Source: Ravibacter arvi
GTDB taxonomy: Bacteria; Bacteroidota; Bacteroidia; Cytophagales; Spirosomataceae
Assembly (NCBI RefSeq): GCF_039540405.1
Contig: NZ_BAABEY010000001.1
Span: 5,493 to 29,492 of the forward strand
DNA: 24,000 nucleotides
Reading direction: 5' to 3'
Part shown: positions 6,792-16,808 of the stretch, piece after piece
Position numbering within the stretch: the stretch's first letter is position 1
Layout of the letters: every line of letters starts with the position of its first letter
Made by a program: the position numbers and the translations under genes
The notes under the pieces: generated by a model
Seen by the model: only the letters and a program-made list of their open reading frames with translations
Database searches by the model: none
Told to the model about the DNA's origin: nothing

Positions 6792-9700
6792 ATGCGCTGC
6801 TCCGTCGTATGGCTGATCTGGCTTTTGACCACGTTTCATGTTAACGGGCAACATACAACGGACATTGCGTCCGTTCCATCCCAAAATCATTTCTTTTTTG
6901 AGCATTTTTCCCAGGAAAGCGGGCTTTCGCAGGGTACGGTGTATGCCATCAGTAACTATGACGGTTATATGTGGTTTGGTACACAGGATGGATTGAACAG
7001 ATTTGACGGGCATGTTTTCAAGACGTTCAGGGCTGGAAGGAGCTCTGGAAACTCCTTGAATAACAACTGGATTCAGACACTTCTGGCTGATAGCCAAGGC
7101 CGTCTCTGGATTGGTACGCAGGAGGGGCTCTGCTTGTATGAGGCACGAAAAGACCGTTTTCAAAGGTTCTCAAGCGTTGTAAAGAAAAATCACCCGGTCG
7201 ATTCCGTCTCGGTGAAAAAGCTGCTAGAAGACCGAAGCGGCAATATCTGGATAATGACCGGTGGGCAAGGACTTTTTTGTCTCTATGTCTCCAGCGGTAA
7301 AGTGGTTTCGTATATGCAGGAAAGTGATAAACTCTACGATTTCTGTCTCGCCCCCGACGGAACGGTGTGGCTGTCGACCTATGACGAGGTGTACCGCTAT
7401 GATGCTAAAAATGATCTCTTCAAAACTACTGGTATCAGGAAGAAACTGAACAAGTATCTCTCCGCGAAGTCGCTAATCCAATCCATTTTCGTGGATTCAA
7501 AAGAAAATCTCTGGGTTGGAACCTATCAGGAGGGTTTGTTTAGGCTTGACAATCCTTTGGAAAGGGGCAGGGTTTCGCATTATGTCAAAGGCACAAGTAA
7601 TAAGAATATTGCCGGCAATGAAATACGCGATTTTTTGGAAGACCGTAATGGCAGGGTATGGATGGGGGTTAAGGATGCAGGGATATCAGTGTTTAATTAT
7701 TCAGACGAGACGTTCGAACACGCTACCGGAGATGAAGTGCGCAGTTTATATGAAGATCATCAGGGAATTATCTGGCTTGGTCTGAGCTACAACGGCGTTA
7801 ATAAATATGATCCGGCCAAACATGTGTTTAAATTTATTCGAAAGCGGGAAAGTCAGTATCAGAATGGTTCTGTTTATACTATTTATGGAAAAGGCGAGAA
7901 TTTGTACATCGGAACTGCCAACAGGTTGATGATTTACCCCATCGGCGCACGTCAATCTGACAATGATCGTGGTCATCGCTTGTCAGGTGTAAATTTCGAA
8001 GTCTATAATATCTCCGAAGACAACCTAGGAAACCTGTGGATTGTATCAACCGATAAAGGTTTATACCGATTCGATGATAAAAGAGGCTACGTGCCTTACT
8101 CAAACGTAAGTGGCGCAGACCGGTTGCAATATTTTCTATATGCAGTTAAGGCACTGAAGAGTATTCCCGAAGTATGGGTAGGCGGACACCGAGGGCTGGA
8201 GAGGTTTGATTTGAAAACACTTAAGTGGAGGGATTGGGATGAAATGCCTCAGATCAAAACGGCAGCGAATTATACTGTTAGAATGATCTATGAGGATTCA
8301 GAACAAAACGTGTGGTTGGGAACGTTAGGTCATGGGTTGGTTTGCTACGACCCGAAAAAAAAGAAGCTCACTGTTTTCGATAAGAAAAACGGGCTTGTAT
8401 GTGATAACATTCGAAGTGTATTACAGGATGGCACTCTCCTGTGGGTGGGGACAGATTGCGGGCTTTTTTTACTTGATATGAAGCGACTCCGGGTAATGTC
8501 ACACTATTCCGAAACGACGTCTGCTCCTTTTAACTTACCTAATGAGGTCGTCTACAGTATCTTGAAGGAACCGGAAGGTGATCTATGGCTTAGCAGCAAC
8601 AAGGGACTCGCGAAATTTTCGCCAAAGAAGGGAGTTCTTAAAACCTACGATGTTACAGACGGTTTGCAAAGTAATGAATTCAATACCAACTGCGCCTATA
8701 AACACACCGACGGAACAATGTATTTCGGAGGAGTAAACGGCATCTCCTATTTTAATCCGAAGGAGCTTAGAACCAATACGTTTGTCCCTCCTGTTAAAAT
8801 TACGGGTATCACTGTATCCGACAGCTCGTATTCACCTAACCTCGAATTCATAACGCTTCCCTACGACCGAAACTTCGTTACCTTCGAGTTTGTCGCACTC
8901 AATTTTTCCAACACAAAAAAGAATCAATACCGATACCGCATGGAAGGTGTCGATCCCAAATGGGTACAGGCAGGTAGTCGAAGGTCTGCCAACTACACGA
9001 ACCTGCAGCCGGGTAAATATATCTTCAGGGTTACAGGCAGCAATAACGACGAAGTTTGGAATAAAAAGGGGATTTCTGTGCGACTTACAATCCTGCCGCC
9101 GTGGTGGGCGACCTGGTGGTTTAAATCTGTATTGATATTGATGCTGGTCAGTGGTGTTTACGGATTGTTTAAATACCGGCTTGCTCAACAAATACAACAA
9201 CGTGAAGCCGAGATACGAGGCTCGCTAATGGCCCAGGAAGCCGAACGACAACGGTTTTCACGTGAGCTTCACGACGGTGTCGGAGCCAATCTTTCGCTTT
9301 TAAAAATGTACCTATCTTCGTTCGGCGACGCCGATATTCCCTTGGCTGAACTGAAAGAACGTTCAGAAAAGCTGTTGGCGGGCTCAGTAGATGAAATCCG
9401 CCGACTGATTCATGACATGCACCCCAGAAACCTTGGATCGTTGGGGTTGGTTAAAGCAACCAATGAAATGGTACAGCTTGTAAATCTTGGCAATCAACGA
9501 CAGGTCATTTTCAGAGTAGAAAATGTTCCTGATCATTTGCCTGAGGTCGTAGAGATTAATCTTTTCCGAATCATCCAGGAGCTCCTACAAAATGCAATAA
9601 AGCACTCCGAAGCACAAACGGTATGGTTGGATTTGCAATTTACTAACCAAAAACTAAGCCTTTCTTACAAGGACAACGGAAAAGGTTTTGATACCTCGTC

Positions 9701-11237: not shown

Positions 11238-12026
11238 CTACATCCACACCCTCTCTAGCGTCTGCCTAAATACTTCATTAAGCTTTTCCGTGTCAGGCTG
11301 ATTTTGTGGTCCTAACCCCCTGACGTACTCCGTGTAGAATTGGATCTTTTGTTCAAGAAAACTGTTCAGTACCTGAATTTTCGGTTCCTCATCCAGTTCC
11401 TCCCCTGACACTTTTCTGTTAAGCAGGTTCCGGATTTCATTCTCAACACCCGTATCTATCACCTGACTGTCGAGGAGCTTTTGAAACTCCATAGGAGCCA
11501 TGGAGTTGGTTTTCCTGATCCAATCGCAGGCAAGTATCGGACGCAATACGTAGAAGTATTTCTTCACGCGTACCTTCTCCCCCTGCAAATACGTCTTGTA
11601 ATTGCCTTCGGCCATATGCAGGTAATGATACAAACAGGATTTCGGGTTAAAATACATCTCCGTCAACTCCCGAAGCCTTTCAGCAAAGAAACCACGTTGC
11701 CAATAGACCATCGGACTTCTCAACCACTCCAGCATAGCAGGATTTGATTTTCGAAAAAGACGCAAGGCCTTCTTCAGTTCCCACCCGGCCAGATCGATAT
11801 CGTTGGGCAGTATTTCCTCCTGGCTATCCTTTTTGTCGTCGATGTCCAAATACCATTCAGGCTGATGAACATACATGTATCGCACATCCCAATCGCTGTC
11901 AACGGATGCGAAACCCCAAGCCCGGCTGCCGCTTTCGACAGCATAGAGGATTTTGATAGCATGTTGCTGTTCGAGGCGTAGAAGCTCCCTTTTTATTTCT
12001 TCTGTCATCACTTGCGGTATTGTCAT
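11238..12026 (-). CDS. RlaP-type (Pol-beta fold, PF10127-like) nucleotidyltransferase associated with RNA ligase operons
   Basis: The nucleotidyltransferase core reads ILYAVESGSRAWGFASVDSDWDVRYMYV (GS...D.D). It is followed by LKKALRLFRKSNPAMLEWLRSPMVY, typical of this family. The ORF opens at GTG 12095. ATG candidates are at 12026 and 12008, so the start is uncertain by about 20-90 nt. Confidence 0.8.
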   Translation of the reverse strand: MTIPQVMTEEIKRELLRLEQQHAIKILYAVESGSRAWGFASVDSDWDVRYMYVHQPEWYLDIDDKKDSQEEILPNDIDLAGWELKKALRLFRKSNPAMLEWLRSPMVYWQRGFFAERLRELTEMYFNPKSCLYHYLHMAEGNYKTYLQGEKVRVKKYFYVLRPILACDWIRKTNSMAPMEFQKLLDSQVIDTGVENEIRNLLNRKVSGEELDEEPKIQVLNSFLEQKIQFYTEYVRGLGPQNQPDTEKLNEVFRQTLERVWM

Positions 12027-12133
12027 ATGATCTCTGAAAACCGGCTTTTTACTTCGAAATGGTAATCTCCGGTGATCCTTAAAATGCAGAATCACTGGAG
12101 GTTAACCGGCCATTCGATAAACTACTAAAAACA

Positions 12134-12230
12134 GAAAGAGCGACAAGCCAGCTGTACATTTTCAGGATTCGAACCTGGGCTGTTTTCACAGCTTCTACCA
12201 GCGAAGTATTACATCTGTACAGCATCTTTC
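12134..12230 (-). ncRNA. Y-RNA-like module A (tRNA-like: D-like arm, GAAA-capped hairpin, T-arm; closed by terminal helices)
   Basis: Minus strand: GAAAGA-U-GCUGUACA...CUUC-GCUGGUA-GAAG, CUGU-GAAA-ACAG, CAGG-UUCGAAU-CCUG...UGUACAGC...GUCGC-UCUUUC, then a U5 run. The terminal helix is GAAAGA/UCUUUC and the inner 8-bp helix is GCUGUACA/UGUACAGC. It lies downstream of rsr in an ORF-free gap. Ends are approximate. Confidence 0.65.
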
Positions 12231-12238
12231 ATTTTGTT

Positions 12239-12371
12239 AAGAAGGGTAAAAAAGCAATGCATGGAATATACACCTTACGGCGCTCTGCTCTACCCACTGA
12301 GCTACCCCGCCAGGGCGGGAGCCAGACTCGAACTGGCGACACGAAGTAACACACATTTACGACACCTTCTT
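12239..12371 (-). ncRNA. yrlA: YrlA-type Y RNA module B: circularly permuted tRNA mimic (T-arm, loop-closed acceptor stem, D-arm)
   Basis: On the minus strand the T-arm is GCCAG-UUCGAGU-CUGGC (plus 12321-12337). The acceptor-like hairpin is UCCCGC-CCUG-GCGGGG (12305-12320). After UA comes the D-arm GCUC-AGUGGGUA-GAGC (12287-12302). The flanking 7-bp terminal helix is AAGAAGG (12365-12371) / CCUUCUU (12239-12245). There is no anticodon arm and no free CCA end. It sits next to rsr, as bacterial Y RNAs typically do. Confidence 0.7.
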
Positions 12372-12389
12372 ATTTCTTTATAATAATGG

Positions 12390-12514
12390 TAAGGAGCGAC
12401 AGGCAAAACGAGACGGGGGACCGCCGTTGAGGACTCGAACCTCCATCATATGTTGCCATACAATGCCCTCCCCCTCAAATGCTAGCGAAGTAACCCGTTT
12501 TTACGGCATCCTTA
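12390..12514 (-). ncRNA. Y-RNA-like module C (paralog of module A: D-like arm, GCAA-capped 9-bp hairpin, T-arm)
   Basis: Minus strand: UAAGGA-U-GCCGU...CUUC-GCUAGCAUUU-GAGG, then CAUUGUAUG-GCAA-CAUAUGAUG (plus 12444-12465), then GAGG-UUCGAGU-CCUC (12429-12443), then ACGGC...GUCGC-UCCUUA. It shares the 5' motif UGCYGUA...UACUUCGCU and the 3' motif UGUCGCUCYUU with module A. Ends are approximate. Confidence 0.65.
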
Positions 12515-12561
12515 TTTTATGGATAGAAATCAATCAGTCTGGCCTCAATTCCCCAACTCCT

Positions 12562-14157
12562 TCACAAGAAGCCGGGGGAACACGAAGCAATGTCGATACG
12601 CTCGATTTCATCTAGCGCTTTTCCGCCGTTTTCCAGGGCATCAAGCACGCCGAAGATCTTATCGCTCCATCCGGCCAGCAGGTAAACCTCATTCTGGATG
12701 ATCTGTACGGGTGGGCGTCCATACCCCATCAGGTCAAAAAGGTATAACCTTGCATCGGGCGCTACAGTACGTTTGTATTCCAGCCATAACGCGTAGATGT
12801 TTTTTGTACCGGTCATGCTGTTCCACAACTGACAGTCGGTAAATAGCATCACTTTGTCCATTACTACTTTCTGTTTCAACAGATCCTCAATCACGAGAAA
12901 ACCATTGGTGGAGTAGCCTACCTCTCCTTCCCGCCTATAAAACTCCTGTACATTTGCCAGGACGTTGTTCTTAGGCACCGGGATCAGCTTCCAGGTATCT
13001 CCAAACATCCCGACCCTTACGTTCCTGCACCGGCTTTGAAGCAGCATAGCCAACATCAGTCCTACATCATAGAGCAGGACCTTCGACTTTGGTGAGACAG
13101 GCTTCTGCATGGAGCCCGATATATCACACGCAAGCAATATCCTGGTATTTTCATCAAACCCGGCTATCACGGATGCACTTTGAACAACAGCTTTTTCAAG
13201 CGCTTCCAGTAGCTCGCCTACATATCCATCACTCCCGGTGAAAAAACTTTTCAGCTTTTCAGAAAGGCCGCTCTTTCCAGTAGGCAAAGACAGCAACTCG
13301 CGGTAAGCTGCCAGGTACCGAAAAGGGAATTGTTTTGCATTAGCCACTTTCTCCGGCGCAGAAAGCTGATCCGCTACCTTGCGGATGTGCGGGTGAGATA
13401 CGCCCGCCTCCAGCATATTCCGCAGGTTACGAAGCGTAGCCATGTGACCCAATTTCCCACTATCGATCAGTTCTTCCCATTTAGCTTTAAATGCAGCTTC
13501 CTTTTCAGCGTCACACTCATAGGAAACCTGGCCCAGGGCTGACAGCTCTGTCTCCCAGGTATAAGGTGTTTCAAGCCTGTCGTCTGCAATTTTGTTAAAA
13601 AGATGTTGCTGCGCTTCATCTTTCGGCTTCGGGTGCACCATGAAAAGCGCATCCCGCAACCGGATTTCGGCCGGACGATTGTATTTGGCAAACTGGTATT
13701 CGTCAAACCTGTTAAAAGCCGTAGACAATCCTTTCTGCAATTGTTTGGACAGGCCACCCAGCTTTTTAAAGCCTTTGCGCTTGTTTAAGACCTGGTAACA
13801 GGCCAACAGCTCCGTGATCTCGTCAGCACGTGCAATGACCTTTGCAGTAGCTTTGGACACCAGGTCGTCACCGGAATGTACCCGGGCCAGTTCGGTCAGC
13901 AGCACCAGCGGCGCTGACCGCATATACATTTTATAACGGGTGTAAACTGCCAGCTTTGCGACAAACAACGGATCATTCTCCGCTATCAGCTTCCTGACGC
14001 GCAGCAGGCGATCATTATCCTTTTCGTAAAACGAATCACTGACAGACCACGTCACTACGGCGGTATATAGCTCCATTGCAGGGTCAAGCCTGAAGGTCTT
14101 CTCTCCTTCATAGTTTTTAATCTGCATGCTCCCGTTGTTGACTGTATTAAACCTCAT
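12562..14157 (-). CDS. rsr: Ro60 ortholog Rsr (TROVE domain plus C-terminal vWA domain with MIDAS motif)
   Basis: The protein is about 530 aa. Its N-terminal two-thirds are helical and TROVE-like (FRLDPAMELYTAVVTW...FYEKDNDRLLRVRKLIAE...FVAKLAVYTR...MRSAPLVLL). The C-terminal vWA domain carries DISGSM (DxSxS). It lies next to rtcB and the tRNA-like RNAs. The ATG at 14157 is preferred over the TTG at 14199, which falls inside the upstream palindrome. Confidence 0.85.
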   Translation of the reverse strand: MRFNTVNNGSMQIKNYEGEKTFRLDPAMELYTAVVTWSVSDSFYEKDNDRLLRVRKLIAENDPLFVAKLAVYTRYKMYMRSAPLVLLTELARVHSGDDLVSKATAKVIARADEITELLACYQVLNKRKGFKKLGGLSKQLQKGLSTAFNRFDEYQFAKYNRPAEIRLRDALFMVHPKPKDEAQQHLFNKIADDRLETPYTWETELSALGQVSYECDAEKEAAFKAKWEELIDSGKLGHMATLRNLRNMLEAGVSHPHIRKVADQLSAPEKVANAKQFPFRYLAAYRELLSLPTGKSGLSEKLKSFFTGSDGYVGELLEALEKAVVQSASVIAGFDENTRILLACDISGSMQKPVSPKSKVLLYDVGLMLAMLLQSRCRNVRVGMFGDTWKLIPVPKNNVLANVQEFYRREGEVGYSTNGFLVIEDLLKQKVVMDKVMLFTDCQLWNSMTGTKNIYALWLEYKRTVAPDARLYLFDLMGYGRPPVQIIQNEVYLLAGWSDKIFGVLDALENGGKALDEIERIDIASCSPGFL

Positions 14158-14195
14158 GACATTCTTTGTTTTAATTGAATGTTCAAATTTCAAAC

Positions 14196-14224
14196 TCAAC
14201 TGCGCGGTCTTTCTGCGCAGTTGA
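14196..14224. promoter_or_regulatory. Palindromic operator-like site upstream of rsr (copy 1)
   Basis: TCAACTGCGC-GGTCTTTCT-GCGCAGTTGA has perfect 10-bp arms. It lies between the rtcB stop (14233) and the rsr ATG (14157). It is nearly identical to the site at 15727-15751. Confidence 0.7.
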
Positions 14225-14232
14225 AACTTTTT

Positions 14233-15687
14233 TTAATCCTCCGGCTTTTCTTTAGGATCGGCCATCCTGACAATCCGCGGCTGGAAGCTGGCGAGGACTT
14301 CTACCAAGTCGGATTGCGCGGCCATCACCGCATAGATATCCTTGTAAACCATCGGCGCTTCATCCAGCCCGGATCCGATCACCGTAATGCGGTTTTCCTT
14401 CAGGTTCCTGTCTACCACTGCCTTGTCGATGGTCTTAAGGGCCGCGCTCCGGCTCATCAACCGTCCAGCGCCATGAGAGGCCGAATGCAGCGACTCAGCA
14501 TTCCCTTTTCCACGAACTACAAACCCAGGGGTGCTCATGGAGCCGGGAATAATCCCGAGGGTATCCGCTCCGGCCGGGGTTGCCCCCTTGCGGTGTACCA
14601 TCACATCCGTACCGTCGGCCAGTTTTTCCTTCCAGGCGAAGTTGTGGTGGTTCTCGATGCGTCTCACCGGCGATACGCCGAGTCCTTTGGCGATCTTGTT
14701 GTGGATCTCATGATGGTTAGCCGAAGCGTAGTCGCCTGCCAGGTTCATCGCGATCCAGTACTCTTGTCCCTCGTCGCTATGAAGGTCCAGCCAGGCCAGG
14801 TGACGTGCTTCTTTTGGAAGCAGGGTCTTCTGCATCGCAATGGCCGAATAGGTATTGGCAATATTCCCGCCGAATCCCCTTGAACCGGAATGGGACAGTA
14901 AGGCCAGGTATCTTCCGGCGGGGATACCGTCCAGCGCATTTTCCGTAATCGTCAGCTCACCCCATTCCACGAAATGATTACCGGTTCCGGAGGTACCCAG
15001 CTGCGCATAAGCTTTATCCTTCAGCGCTTTTACGGTCTTGATTTCATTCCACTCCGGGCGGTCGAACAGCGTCGTATCCAGGTGTACGTTCGTTTTAGCC
15101 CCCATACCGAAGTGCGTATGCTCCATCAGCAGTTTTTCCAGTCTTGGCTTTTCGTGCTCCACCGATGCTGCCGGCAGATCGAAGATGCTCAGGCACATAC
15201 GACAGGCGATGTCCACCCCAACCGCATAGGGGATAATGGTATCCGGCTCTGTCGCCAGTACTCCACCTATCGGCAGACCGTAGCCCTGGTGCGCATCAGG
15301 CATCAATGCCCCTGCCACTGCAATGGGCAACTGGATAGCCGTACGCATCTGCGCCAGGGCGCCCACTTCTATGTGTTCCGGGCCGAAGACTGGGAAAGTC
15401 ATGATTTCCTCCTTTAACTGCTGCACGCTCCGGGCCTGTTTGATGAACTGACCTTTCGCGCGCAACTCAACGATCCGTTCGGCAAGATTCTTGAATTTAC
15501 CGTTCCGTTTCAGCGCATAAGGTTCCGGGTGCTCGATCAAGGCTTCAAGGTTGGCCATAATAGTGGCTTTGTCCATCACCTCGTGCTTCAGCAGGCCGTT
15601 GGCCACGCGGCTGAATGCTACCAGCAAGTCCAGGTCGCTGATTCCCAAAGCGCCTAATTCTCCATTGCTGATTTTTTCTCTTTCCAT
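14233..15687 (-). CDS. rtcB: RNA 3'-phosphate/5'-OH ligase RtcB (with an N-terminal extension of roughly 50-85 aa)
   Basis: Canonical RtcB motifs are present: MPDAHQGYGLPIGG, GVDIACRM, GTSGTGNHFVEWG, HSGSRGFG, NHHNFAWKE, HRKGATPA, IPGSMSTPGFVVRGKG and SASHGAGR (the GMP-histidine context). The ATG at 15687 (MEREKISNG...) is preferred over the TTG at 15720. Confidence 0.95.
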   Translation of the reverse strand: MEREKISNGELGALGISDLDLLVAFSRVANGLLKHEVMDKATIMANLEALIEHPEPYALKRNGKFKNLAERIVELRAKGQFIKQARSVQQLKEEIMTFPVFGPEHIEVGALAQMRTAIQLPIAVAGALMPDAHQGYGLPIGGVLATEPDTIIPYAVGVDIACRMCLSIFDLPAASVEHEKPRLEKLLMEHTHFGMGAKTNVHLDTTLFDRPEWNEIKTVKALKDKAYAQLGTSGTGNHFVEWGELTITENALDGIPAGRYLALLSHSGSRGFGGNIANTYSAIAMQKTLLPKEARHLAWLDLHSDEGQEYWIAMNLAGDYASANHHEIHNKIAKGLGVSPVRRIENHHNFAWKEKLADGTDVMVHRKGATPAGADTLGIIPGSMSTPGFVVRGKGNAESLHSASHGAGRLMSRSAALKTIDKAVVDRNLKENRITVIGSGLDEAPMVYKDIYAVMAAQSDLVEVLASFQPRIVRMADPKEKPED

Positions 15688-15726
15688 GAAAGGTATTTTT
15701 ATTTTGATGCTACAAACCAAACCTCT

Positions 15727-15751
15727 AACTGCGCAGTCTTTTTGCGCAGTT
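15727..15751. promoter_or_regulatory. Palindromic operator-like site in the rtcB / WYL-regulator divergent intergenic region (copy 2)
   Basis: AACTGCGCA-GTCTTTT-TGCGCAGTT has perfect 9-bp arms. It lies about 40 nt upstream of the rtcB ATG and 35 nt upstream of the divergent regulator ATG (15786). Confidence 0.7.
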
Positions 15752-15785
15752 GAATTTATTTCCTTACTTTTCTAAAAAAGTTGCG

Positions 15786-16808
15786 ATGCCTGTCAACCGA
15801 AACGCCCTCATACGTTACCGTACCATTGACCAATGCCTTCAGAACCGGTTCCGGAAATGGACCCTCGACGATCTCATTGAAGCCTGCTCGGCCGCCTTGT
15901 ATGAGTTTGAAGGGATCGACAAAGGTGTGAGCAGGCGGACCGTCCAGGCCGATATAGAAATGATGCGAAGCGACAAGCTGGGCTATGAAGCGCCTATTGT
16001 TGTAGTCGACCGGAAATACTACAGTTATGCGGACAAAAACTACAGCATCGCCCATATCCCGTTGAGCCACCAGGATCTGAAGGTGCTGACCGAAGTATCG
16101 GGCCTGCTGCAGCAATTCAAGGGCTTCAGCCATTCTACCGACCTGACCGAGATGGTCAGCAGGCTGGAGGATAAGATACACGCCCGTAAAACACATTCAG
16201 CCCCGGTCATCGATTTTGAAAAGAACGATCACCTTCGCGGCCTGGAGTATATTGAGGGCATCCGGAAAGCGATCGTTGCCCGGACAACGCTTTATCTTAC
16301 TTACCAATCGTTCAAAGCCCGGCAGGCCAGCTCATTCCACTTCAGTCCATACCTGTTGAAAGAGTACCGGAACCGGTGGTTTATGCTTGGCTTGTCACAC
16401 CAGCGGCATGCACCTTTACTCACACTGGCTTTGGACCGGATACAGGATTTTGGGGAAGACACCGGAGAGCCCCACCGGGAAAATACCCAAATCGATCTAT
16501 CCACCTATTATTCGGATGTGATCGGCGTGACCAAAACTCCGGGGCAGCGCGACTGTGAAGTAATATTCAGGATGGATCACAAAGACGCTCCTTACCTGAT
16601 CACCAAGCCGCTTCATCCTACGCAGAGGGTTTTGAGCGAAGACGCAGGAGGGAAAATTTTCAGTATTAAGGTTGTCTTGAACTTCGAGCTGGAAAGGGAG
16701 ATACTTGGTTTTGGTCCAAGAATACACGTTTTAGGTCCAAGGATTCTTCGTAAAAGGATCAGGGAACAGTTGAGAGAGGCTTTGGAGAAATATGAGTCTC
16801 CAGAATGA
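15786..16808 (+). CDS. HTH-WYL domain transcriptional regulator
   Basis: The ATG at 15786 gives MPVNRNALIRYRTIDQCLQNRFRKWTLDDLIEACS...GVSRRTVQADIEMMR, the N-terminal wHTH typical of Bacteroidota WYL regulators. The central WYL-type strand reads FHFSPYLLKEYRNRWFMLG. A C-terminal extension follows. The gene is divergent from rtcB. Confidence 0.8.
   Translation: MPVNRNALIRYRTIDQCLQNRFRKWTLDDLIEACSAALYEFEGIDKGVSRRTVQADIEMMRSDKLGYEAPIVVVDRKYYSYADKNYSIAHIPLSHQDLKVLTEVSGLLQQFKGFSHSTDLTEMVSRLEDKIHARKTHSAPVIDFEKNDHLRGLEYIEGIRKAIVARTTLYLTYQSFKARQASSFHFSPYLLKEYRNRWFMLGLSHQRHAPLLTLALDRIQDFGEDTGEPHRENTQIDLSTYYSDVIGVTKTPGQRDCEVIFRMDHKDAPYLITKPLHPTQRVLSEDAGGKIFSIKVVLNFELEREILGFGPRIHVLGPRILRKRIREQLREALEKYESPE

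Follow-up and report, generated by a model that had tools for sequence, protein, structure and literature searches.

A conserved palindrome in RNA-repair promoters of Bacteroidota as the candidate site of an adjacent WYL regulator

A palindrome that occurs twice in the window (the whole 24-kb stretch of DNA that was analyzed), once upstream of rtcB and once upstream of rsr, is most plausibly the DNA element bound by the WYL-domain regulator encoded beside it, as had been proposed in a first-pass annotation of this DNA, and it appears to serve RNA-repair promoters across Bacteroidota. Sequence comparison shows that the site is conserved, that it keeps a fixed place in the promoter and lacks selection for pairing between its arms, that it goes with the regulator, and which genes make up the regulon. 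To our knowledge, RtcR is the sole characterized regulator of RtcB/Rsr RNA repair, and we know of no account of its control outside Proteobacteria. For a major phylum, the finding thus names a candidate regulator, pins down a 23-bp site within a constant promoter layout, and allows a regulon to be predicted from the DNA alone.

The first target gene is rtcB, which encodes an RNA 3'-phosphate ligase (14233..15687, minus strand, ATG at 15687; PF01139, E 1.5e-82), and the second is rsr, which encodes a Ro60/TROVE plus vWA protein according to Pfam (12562..14157, minus strand, ATG at 14157). Three tandem tRNA-like or Y-RNA-like units lie 3' of rsr (12126..12520, minus strand) and include a YrlA match at 12253-12357 whose 40 bits (E 1.8e-7) are under the gathering score. 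These units probably share the transcript of the rsr promoter, and rlaP, the gene for an RNA-repair-associated Pol-beta nucleotidyltransferase (11238..12095, minus strand; PF10127, E 1.5e-90), is probably the final gene of the rsr unit. Divergent from rtcB is the gene for a predicted HTH-WYL-WCX regulator of 340 amino acids (15786..16808, plus strand; Pfam). The identities first assigned to these genes, namely TROVE/Ro60, RtcB, and WYL plus WCX, agree with the Pfam matches.

Both palindromes were found where the first-pass annotation had placed them: site 1 at 14196-14224 (TCAACTGCGCGGTCTTTCTGCGCAGTTGA), inside the 75-nt spacer between rtcB and rsr, and site 2 at 15727-15751 (AACTGCGCAGTCTTTTTGCGCAGTT). 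Of the 29-nt common stretch with two differences that had been described, the two differences stand, but the length is 28 nt; likeness between the sites reaches 35 nt at 86% identity. The 23-bp core of site 1 (14199..14221, minus strand) reads ACTGCGCA-GAAAGAC-CGCGCAGT on the rsr coding strand, and that of site 2 (15728..15750, minus strand) reads ACTGCGCA-AAAAGAC-TGCGCAGT on the rtcB coding strand, so that both follow the form ACTGCGC(G/A)-N7-TGCGCAGT. At one position of its promoter-proximal half-site, site 1 carries a C where 90 of 91 related sites carry a T. The distances from core to ATG, 41 nt for site 1 and rsr and 40 nt for site 2 and rtcB, are nearly equal, as had been noticed at the outset, and site 2 also falls in the region common to the divergent WYL gene, 35 nt upstream of its ATG (15786), again as noticed. 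When AACTGCGC-N9-GCGCAGTT was searched with up to three mismatches, sites 1 and 2 were the sole matches in the 24 kb, compared with an expectation of 0.06 from dinucleotide shuffles; none of 100 shuffles gave two matches.

Each palindrome is followed on the coding strand by a TTTG that begins exactly 11 nt past the core. The earlier observation of this TTTG, and its assignment to the -7 element of Bacteroidota promoters, gain weight from the related sites: TTTG stands at offset 11 in 91 of 110 copies and at offset 10 or 12 in none, and this spacing stays fixed while the distance from palindrome to ATG varies from 37 to 232 nt. The predicted -7 boxes, which match the sigma-A consensus TAnnTTTG (PMC7366714, PMC9723704), lie at 15713..15720 for rtcB (TTGGTTTG) and at 14184..14191 for rsr (GAAATTTG), both on the minus strand. 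With the box placed at -12..-5 after PMC9723704, the predicted start sites fall near 15708 (rtcB) and 14179 (rsr) on the minus strand. Given the exact 11-nt spacing, the palindrome covers approximately -42 to -20, the usual position of the -33 element, and therefore lies outside the RNA made from that promoter, upstream of the start predicted from the -7 box.

The related sites share further features that define a module of about 70 bp, comprising an A/T-rich block, ACT(G/A)CGCA-N7-TGCG(C/T)AGT, 11 nt, and the TTTG of the -7 box. In the aligned sites TTTG is preceded by T(T/A)nC and followed by TAtCrTCAAA, and the flanks of the palindrome are conserved. The spacer between the arms is oriented, reading AAWA(C/G)A(C/T), and it fills the position of the -33 TTTG, which is absent from the related promoters. 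Only 36% of them have the A of the TA in the -7 box; the boxes thus are often sub-consensus, and the promoters are likely weak at base level. In the window, an A/T-rich element that agrees with the conserved AAAWTAWTTTTY block abuts site 2 on its upstream side (15751..15762, minus strand; aaataaattcaa on the coding strand) and may have a role like that of an UP element. Similarly, an A/T-rich element lies upstream of site 1, adjoining the rtcB stop codon (14222..14233, minus strand; aaaaaagtttca on the coding strand). Both palindromes belong to copies of one promoter module, in keeping with the duplicated promoters that had been suspected. On the other strand, a weak -7-like box of the WYL gene can be proposed with low confidence at 15766..15773 (plus strand; TACTTTTC), 15 nt past site 2, and a similar TAnnTTT[TC] is found at the same offset in related loci.

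A search for the motif at orthologous loci, which had been recommended as a check, found sites in 73 of 81 related sequences, compared with 0-8 in Markov simulations. The collection contains 110 copies of the palindrome in 80 related Bacteroidota loci, and in 66 of these loci a site lies no more than 400 nt upstream of the WYL gene. An unanchored scan of metagenomes, in which the search was independent of the regulator, returned 124 instances of the module. The first gene 3' of these instances encodes RtcB in 39 cases, Rsr in 29, Hen1 in five, RecA in three, and RlaP in two, and the module is also placed before Y-RNA-like genes. A divergent WYL gene stands directly upstream in 57 of the 124. 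In Chitinophagales, the module is found upstream of recA, whose leaders carry it in addition to non-canonical LexA-type SOS boxes. By comparison, 2.9 million viral contigs yielded two matches, a number that resembles chance.

The regulator carries a WYL domain (PF13280, E 4.2e-11, residues 155-221) and a C-terminal WCX dimerization domain (PF25583, E 8.2e-12, residues 257-333). Its N-terminus matches HTH_11 at E 0.016, which is under the cut-off, and residues 1-81 form three helices and a beta hairpin in an AlphaFold model with an overall pLDDT of 48. A PDB sequence search with residues 1-90 gave no match, and the protein as a whole gave only marginal matches to DriD, PafC, and CapW among PDB sequences. 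A profile search matched DriD chains in the WCX region only (E ~0.008), and PADLOC matches were to generic WYL models. From the low-confidence model and the sub-threshold HTH_11 match, the recognition helix is predicted at approximately residues 50-61 (GVSRRTVQADIEMMRS). Variation in this helix provides a link to the site. In three loci (L071, L073, and L077), all sites read TGTGCA..TGCACA, with both arms changed from TGCGCA, and Q54R, E58N, and M59A in helix 50-61 are confined to the regulators of these loci; the other 77 regulators all keep Q54. This co-variation is limited to a single clade and so counts as one evolutionary event.

How the regulator might act is suggested by the layout of its promoters. 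A homodimer of the wHTH-WYL-WCX protein would dock on each palindrome as double-stranded DNA, after its WYL domain had taken up a single-stranded nucleic-acid damage signal in the manner of DriD. Once docked, it would bring RNA polymerase to otherwise weak promoters, and at this locus rtcB and the rsr/Y-RNA/rlaP unit would be turned on. In other genomes hen1, tRNA-like RNAs, and sometimes recA would respond in the same way. Physical binding, the activating sign, and the ligand are what we infer from the comparative data. Activation is favored over repression with modest confidence, given that the site geometry, the overlap with the -35 equivalent, the fixed distance to the -10 equivalent, and the divergent regulator gene all agree with DriD.

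The main competitor keeps the regulator and its site but reverses the sign, as the first-pass annotation had done when it proposed a repressor that also controls its own gene. Like CapW or BrxR, the protein would block RNA polymerase at -42..-20 until a WYL ligand releases it, and it would also repress its own divergent gene. The palindrome does overlap the core promoter, and many loci have a site only 34-42 nt from the WYL ATG. Furthermore, the strongly conserved TTTG and the A/T-rich block could mean high basal activity, and an invariant TTTG with such a block could yield a promoter that needs a repressor. CapW and BrxR are themselves wHTH-WYL-WCX proteins, and these members of the same protein family repress by binding ~20-bp palindromes within bidirectional promoters (PMC11662680). 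For a repressor, however, overlap alone would suffice, yet the 11-nt spacing is constant over the classes of the phylum and over target genes, and the promoters have no -33 element and often no conserved A in the -7 box. Known WYL repressors guard phage-defense operons, whereas the targets found here are rtcB, rsr, hen1, rlaP, noncoding RNAs, and recA, with no phage-defense association. Moreover, the characterized damage-response WYL regulators that the literature search found (DriD, PafBC, SiwR, and an Acinetobacter regulator) are all activators. A palindrome in place of the -33 element, with constant spacing to a -7 box that is often sub-consensus, corresponds to the layout that DriD activates (PMC13004042). 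Autoregulation, for its part, may not apply here: DriD leaves its own gene unregulated in an analogous divergent layout, and the promoter geometry on the WYL side is different and weaker. Overall, the repressor reading is possible but doubtful.

It is very unlikely that a different factor, such as an alternative sigma factor or a regulator that is not linked to the site, binds the palindrome and that the WYL gene is nearby only incidentally. In its favor, about half of the metagenome instances have no WYL gene on the contig, which is often short. Against this reading are the frequency with which a WYL gene lies beside the site in both the anchored and the unanchored collections, the coincidence of recognition-helix Q54R with the half-site change, and a dyad with an N7 spacer that reproduces the geometry of the DriD site.

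The most improbable alternative, to the point of being hard to credit, is that the palindrome acts as a nucleic-acid hairpin, either a stem-loop in the 5'-UTR of the rtcB and rsr mRNAs, which the first-pass annotation had held in reserve, or an intrinsic terminator. Stable folds are predicted for both copies (-15 to -21 kcal/mol, z-scores -3.3 to -6.5), symmetric variants occur among some arms, and a consensus scan marks both copies as a hairpin plus T-run on the plus strand. Nevertheless, a leader hairpin is rejected on the grounds that the site precedes the -7 box at fixed spacing, outside the predicted transcripts, and that its arms lack pairing selection. At arm pair 4-20, which is mid-stem, 33 of 91 sites (36%) are not Watson-Crick: the counts are G/C 53, A/C 21, G/T 12, and A/T 5 (odds ratio 1.05, p=1), and A.C is commoner than G.U on the coding strand (21 versus 12). 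This is the only position that varies, and the arms change there independently of each other, evidence against selection to keep them paired. The outer arm pairs are mismatched in approximately 30% of sites. The arm sequence itself is conserved phylum-wide, which fits sequence-specific recognition. As for a terminator, the T-run past the stem is missing in most other loci, where the sequence is A-rich (e.g., gaaaaataattt), and no plus-strand gene ends at site 1 or site 2. Rfam searches at both palindromes returned no family, whether gathering thresholds or E<=10 was applied.

Two other readings of the sequence were discarded. TGCGCA is self-palindromic, and the core might be taken for two direct copies of it, but the variants TGTGCA..TGCACA and ACTACGCA..TGCGTAGT retain inverted rather than direct symmetry. 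A plus-strand promoter upstream of site 2, which would put the palindrome in the leader of the WYL mRNA, was also considered; the TTTGA there is no more than the rtcB start region read in reverse complement, and the TTTG is not conserved in Mucilaginibacter.

If the palindrome is the WYL site, control of the RNA-repair genes becomes open to direct testing. If the activation reading is also true, WYL activation in the style of DriD and PafBC would reach the unusual sigma-A promoter of Bacteroidota, and would cover responses to RNA damage as well as to DNA damage. Through the module, RNA repair is connected with recA in Chitinophagales, and new noncoding RNAs and tRNA arrays become probable participants in the response. 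A more speculative extension, offered tentatively and rather unlikely to hold, is that the WYL domain senses products of RNA damage, for example tRNA halves or other single-stranded RNA ends, instead of or in addition to single-stranded DNA. The regulator would then stand in Bacteroidota where RtcR stands in Proteobacteria, as the first WYL activator to respond to RNA damage, and would command a phylum-wide nucleic-acid-damage regulon through palindrome-N11-TTTG. In this same tentative proposal, the regulon would include RNA ligase, Ro/Y-RNA, Hen1, RlaP, unclassified tRNA-like RNAs, possibly spare tRNA arrays, and the Chitinophagales recA beside a LexA-like SOS system. A gene neighborhood of WYL and RNA-repair genes may, reportedly, already be recorded by Burroughs & Aravind 2016 (NAR 44:8525). 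A later paper cites that work and Makarova et al. 2014 for 2',3'-cyclic RNA ends and for cyclic-nucleotide-recognizing WYL domains. The literature search found no paper tying a WYL regulator to rtcB or rsr in Bacteroidota.

Among known systems, the functional analogue is RtcR, the CARF-AAA+ sigma-54 activator of rtcBA or rsr-yrlBA-rtcBA in Proteobacteria, which likewise is a divergent, ligand-sensing regulator of an RtcB/Rsr/Y-RNA operon (PMC7790460). The protein families are unrelated, however, with CARF and AAA+ domains in place of wHTH-WYL-WCX, and RtcR works from sigma-54 enhancer sites, not from a dyad at -33. The Bacteroidetes LexA boxes (CTAA-N5-TTAG and GGA-N5-TCC) are palindromic damage-response sites in the same phylum, but the motif is another one and the regulator is an S24 peptidase repressor; the paper describing these boxes mentions neither WYL nor TGCGCA. 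CapW and BrxR share the domain architecture and a palindrome of similar length in a bidirectional promoter by the regulator gene, but they are repressors released by single-stranded DNA that guard CBASS and BREX operons, in contrast to the RNA-repair targets and invariant site-to-box spacing seen here. Mycobacterial PafBC is a WYL damage-response activator that works by sigma adaptation and is triggered by single-stranded DNA, with a box fixed upstream of the -10 in promoters without a -35. It is a heterodimer with a non-palindromic box, whereas here there is a single gene and a dyad-symmetric site.

The closest parallel is DriD of Caulobacter crescentus, a homodimeric wHTH-3HB-WYL-WCX activator (PMC13004042, PMC9186387). 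Its site, ATACGAC-N7-GTCGTAT, overlaps the -35 at an equal distance from the -10 in all targets, which have poor -35 elements, and its gene, itself unregulated, is divergent from a target operon with one common site (PMC13004042, PMC9186387). The regulator described here likewise has WYL and WCX domains, with a putative wHTH at its N-terminus, a 7-nt-spaced inverted repeat ([A]CTGCGCA-N7-TGCGCAG[T]), and one site between its gene and the divergent operon. With respect to the predicted start, the site overlaps the -35 equivalent, keeps a fixed distance to the -10 equivalent, and accompanies a poor upstream element. In both systems there is a recA promoter that carries the site and a LexA-type box. 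The differences are equally clear: sequence similarity is marginal, the half-site sequence differs, the promoters are of the Bacteroidota sigma-A type, and the regulon consists of RNA-repair genes (rtcB, rsr/Y RNA, hen1, and rlaP), whereas that of DriD consists of DNA-damage genes.

Both copies of the palindrome lie in the window sequence exactly where the first-pass annotation had placed them, and a search for AACTGCGC-N9-GCGCAGTT allowing up to three mismatches returned only these two sites in 24 kb, versus 0.06 matches expected from dinucleotide shuffles. The 23-bp core of site 1 (14199-14221) is located 41 nt upstream of the rsr start codon, whereas that of site 2 (15728-15750) lies upstream of two divergent genes, 40 nt from the rtcB start codon and 35 nt from the regulator gene. 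The sites have 35 nt in common at 86% identity. Pfam assigns the neighboring genes to RlaP (11238-12095, minus strand), Ro60/TROVE (rsr; 12562-14157, minus), RtcB (14233-15687, minus), and the WYL+WCX regulator (15786-16808, plus). Related promoter sites have TGCGCA in 90 of 91 cases, but the promoter-proximal half-site of site 1 (at 14206) is CGCGCA, a change also present in the close relative L001; the site at rsr may be weaker than the one at rtcB. The rsr-rlaP gap is occupied by three tandem tRNA-like, YrlA-like units at ~140 nt spacing (12126-12520, minus strand), and a T-arm resembling that of tRNA (GGTTCGAATCC) is found in every unit. Rfam YrlA hits the middle one with 40 bits (E 1.8e-7), short of its gathering score of 69. 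ARAGORN calls no tRNA among these units, which are probably divergent Y RNAs.

The regulator is 95% identical to that of a Cytophagaceae MAG, and the window is related to Dyadobacter. Identity exceeds 70% across Cytophagia and Sphingobacteriia and is 54-60% in Chitinophagia, Saprospiria, Flavobacteriales, and Kapaibacteria. Among 80 genome loci fetched via the regulator, rtcB, rsr, or rlaP is usually divergent from the regulator gene, and 66 have a motif copy within 400 nt upstream of that gene. Presence of the motif at related loci, which had been set as a check on the original proposal, was confirmed by a tolerant search for ACTGCGCA-N7-TGCGCAGT: 110 copies were found in 73 of 81 sequences, compared to 0-8 when the same 928 kb was simulated with a first-order Markov model. 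Two regulator paralogues, ~70% identical to the query, are present per genome in Desertivirga xinjiangensis (L007 and L045) and Mucilaginibacter bin.146 (L017 and L019); in Desertivirga, one is beside rtcB/rsr and the other beside hen1, with the same motif at both. In the 534-aa homologue P0116, PF01885 (RNA 2'-phosphotransferase Tpt1/KptA) is joined to the WYL regulator, through true fusion of the genes or through a merged gene call; it is a further link to RNA-end chemistry.

The palindrome is embedded in a longer module, whose consensus is AAAWTAWTTTTY, then ACT(G/A)CGCA-AAWA(C/G)A(C/T)-TGCG(C/T)A(G/C)T, then N7-T(T/A)nC-TTTG-TAtCrTCAAA. On the coding strand of the downstream gene, TTTG occurs exactly 11 nt after the palindrome in 91 of 110 copies and at offset 10 or 12 in none of them, a constancy that bears out the suggestion that it is a -7 element. 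The spacing is kept whether the start codon is at 37 or at 232 nt, and wherever a leader is longer, the additional sequence always follows TTTG. The primary sigma factor of Bacteroidota uses TAnnTTTG as its -7 box, mapped at -12 to -5, and a weaker TTTG is found at ~-33 in promoters of this phylum (PMC7366714, PMC9723704). Because TTTG would be this -7 box, the palindrome is predicted to lie at ~-42 to -20, replacing the -33 element, and thus upstream of the transcription starts, which in the window would be near 15708 for rtcB and 14179 for rsr. The -33 TTTG is absent from the module promoters, and the conserved A of the -7 box is often missing (present in 36%). Furthermore, the palindrome spacer is asymmetric, its orientation matches the promoter direction, and in loci with two sites (~100 bp apart) the divergent genes each have their own site in their own orientation.

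The regulator is assigned to the wHTH-WYL-WCX family, which includes both activators (DriD, PafBC) and repressors (CapW, BrxR) (PMC11662680). The first-pass annotation took the regulator to be a repressor, which is conceivable but less likely, as spacing without drift would not be required by a purely occluding repressor. Toward the regulator gene, the -7-like box closest to site 2 is a weak one (TACTTTTC) at a distance of 15 nt, with TTT beginning at offset 18 versus 11 in the module; thus, autoregulation is no more than a possibility.

The proposed alternative of a 5'-UTR hairpin is very unlikely: a stable RNA fold is predicted for both copies, and both look terminator-like on the plus strand, but a structural role as RNA hairpin or terminator is argued against by the position upstream of the predicted starts and by the comparative data, which favor recognition of the palindrome as a DNA site. 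At arm pair 4-20, the only frequently variable position (G/C 53, A/C 21, G/T 12, A/T 5), the arms vary independently (odds ratio 1.05, p=1), leaving a mid-stem mismatch in 36% of sites, and on the coding strand A.C is commoner than G.U. A T-run following the stem is specific to the lineage of the window, and it is the arm sequence itself that is conserved phylum-wide. The sole fully compensated change (C-G to T-A, pair 5-19) is found at all five sites of the related loci L071, L073, and L077, and only there does helix 50-61 of the regulator have Q54R, E58N, and M59A, the other 77 proteins all having Q54. This may be the third helix of the predicted wHTH, an assignment of low confidence based on an AlphaFold model that is itself of low confidence and on an HTH_11 match below threshold (residues 47-79). 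A genome-wide site switch accompanied by a helix change is as expected for a transcription factor co-evolving with its operator, and is suggestive rather than proof because it represents a single evolutionary event.

At loci anchored on the regulator, the gene that comes first downstream of the module encodes RtcB (46), Rsr (20), RlaP (3), Hen1 (3), or an SPFH protein (1). No ORF follows in 15 cases, and tRNA-like or Y-RNA-like RNAs located directly downstream are predicted to be driven directly by the module. Metagenome contigs scanned with the 38-nt module, with no regulator anchor, yielded at least 124 instances on at least 120 contigs, with RtcB (at least 39), Rsr (at least 29), Hen1 (at least 5), or RlaP (at least 2) first downstream and a divergent WYL gene directly upstream in at least 57. 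Other instances listed involve ncRNAs, a recurrent ~145-aa protein, an SPFH protein, a DUF2828/DUF7788 protein, S24 peptidases, and RecA (at least 3); the module is essentially absent from phage contigs. Hen1, the RNA 3'-end 2'-O-methyltransferase of the Pnkp/Hen1 repair system, is downstream of the module at L005:4880, L030:5942, L045:5943, and on at least five metagenome contigs, as are SPFH/Band-7 (L048, L143) and DUF2828/DUF7788 (L152) proteins, and all three are predicted targets. The ~145-aa protein, which has no Pfam match, is first after the module in L098, L132, L135, L158, L170, L172, L176, and L179; its gene is often divergent from the WYL gene, and it is an uncharacterized predicted regulon member. 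Genes for S24 peptidases (LexA/CI-like) are downstream of the module at L114:3023-3075, L177, and L092:7694-7731; in L114 and L177, TTTG is found at offset 11 from a single palindrome on each strand, which makes the module bidirectional.

The module-RecA contigs (at least three) are assigned to uncultured Chitinophagales, and of the three Chitinophagales lineages whose independent recA loci were examined, two have the module. In these recA leaders (L100:661, L117:2030-2067, L194, L203, L207/L208), the module is distal, and CTAA-N5-TTAG boxes, the non-canonical LexA motif of Bacteroidetes (PMC8565304), are proximal, beside a consensus TACATTTG -7 box. This combination implies dual control of recA.

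A conserved structured RNA of ~200 nt is located directly downstream of a WYL-type promoter at L063:5616-5811 and L068:5619-5814 (both minus strand) and in L074, L079, L121, and L157. Its acceptor stem and T-arm resemble those of tRNA, compensatory changes are seen in 11 predicted pairs, and no Rfam match is obtained even at E<=1; it may represent a new class of Y-RNA-like molecules. Arrays of 6-17 tRNA genes with varied anticodons flank WYL/rsr loci of several Bacteroidota MAGs (L066:1710-3273 and 7020-8233; L071:4570-5714; L080:4029-5083; L056:3747-4011 and 7313-7549). The L066 array occupies the usual place of Y RNAs after rsr, and such tRNAs may be damage-inducible spares. Between the -7 box and ATG, Mucilaginibacter rtcB leaders (L006, L011, L013, L014, L018-L020, L023, L024, L026, L032) have a conserved G+C-rich hairpin and then a T-run (gccccctctc...gagaggggtttt), which could be a repeat element or a leader terminator/attenuator.

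Dyad sites are already known for other WYL regulators. In the literature searched, no description of this regulator, motif, or promoter module was found, and an earlier comparative-genomics paper may mention WYL/RNA-repair adjacency; how RtcB/Rsr repair is regulated in a major phylum becomes directly testable. To our knowledge, the ligand of all characterized relatives is ssDNA. Since the regulon is one of RNA repair, damaged RNA would be an attractive ligand candidate here.

The DriD site, ATACGAC-N7-GTCGTAT, overlaps the -35 position, and its distance to the -10 element is identical across all promoters under DriD control, in which -35 elements are poor (PMC13004042, PMC9186387). The driD gene and an operon that DriD activates are divergent and have one site between them; the operon alone is activated, not driD; the protein also binds a recA promoter with a LexA box (PMC13004042, PMC9186387). 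This precedent argues against assuming autoregulation. The N7 spacer is the same as that found here and the arm length is similar, and the layout agrees with DriD on every testable point. Given this likeness, the lack of a -33 TTTG, the frequent loss of the -7 A, and spacing without drift, a DriD-like, ligand-triggered activator is favored with modest confidence over a repressor.
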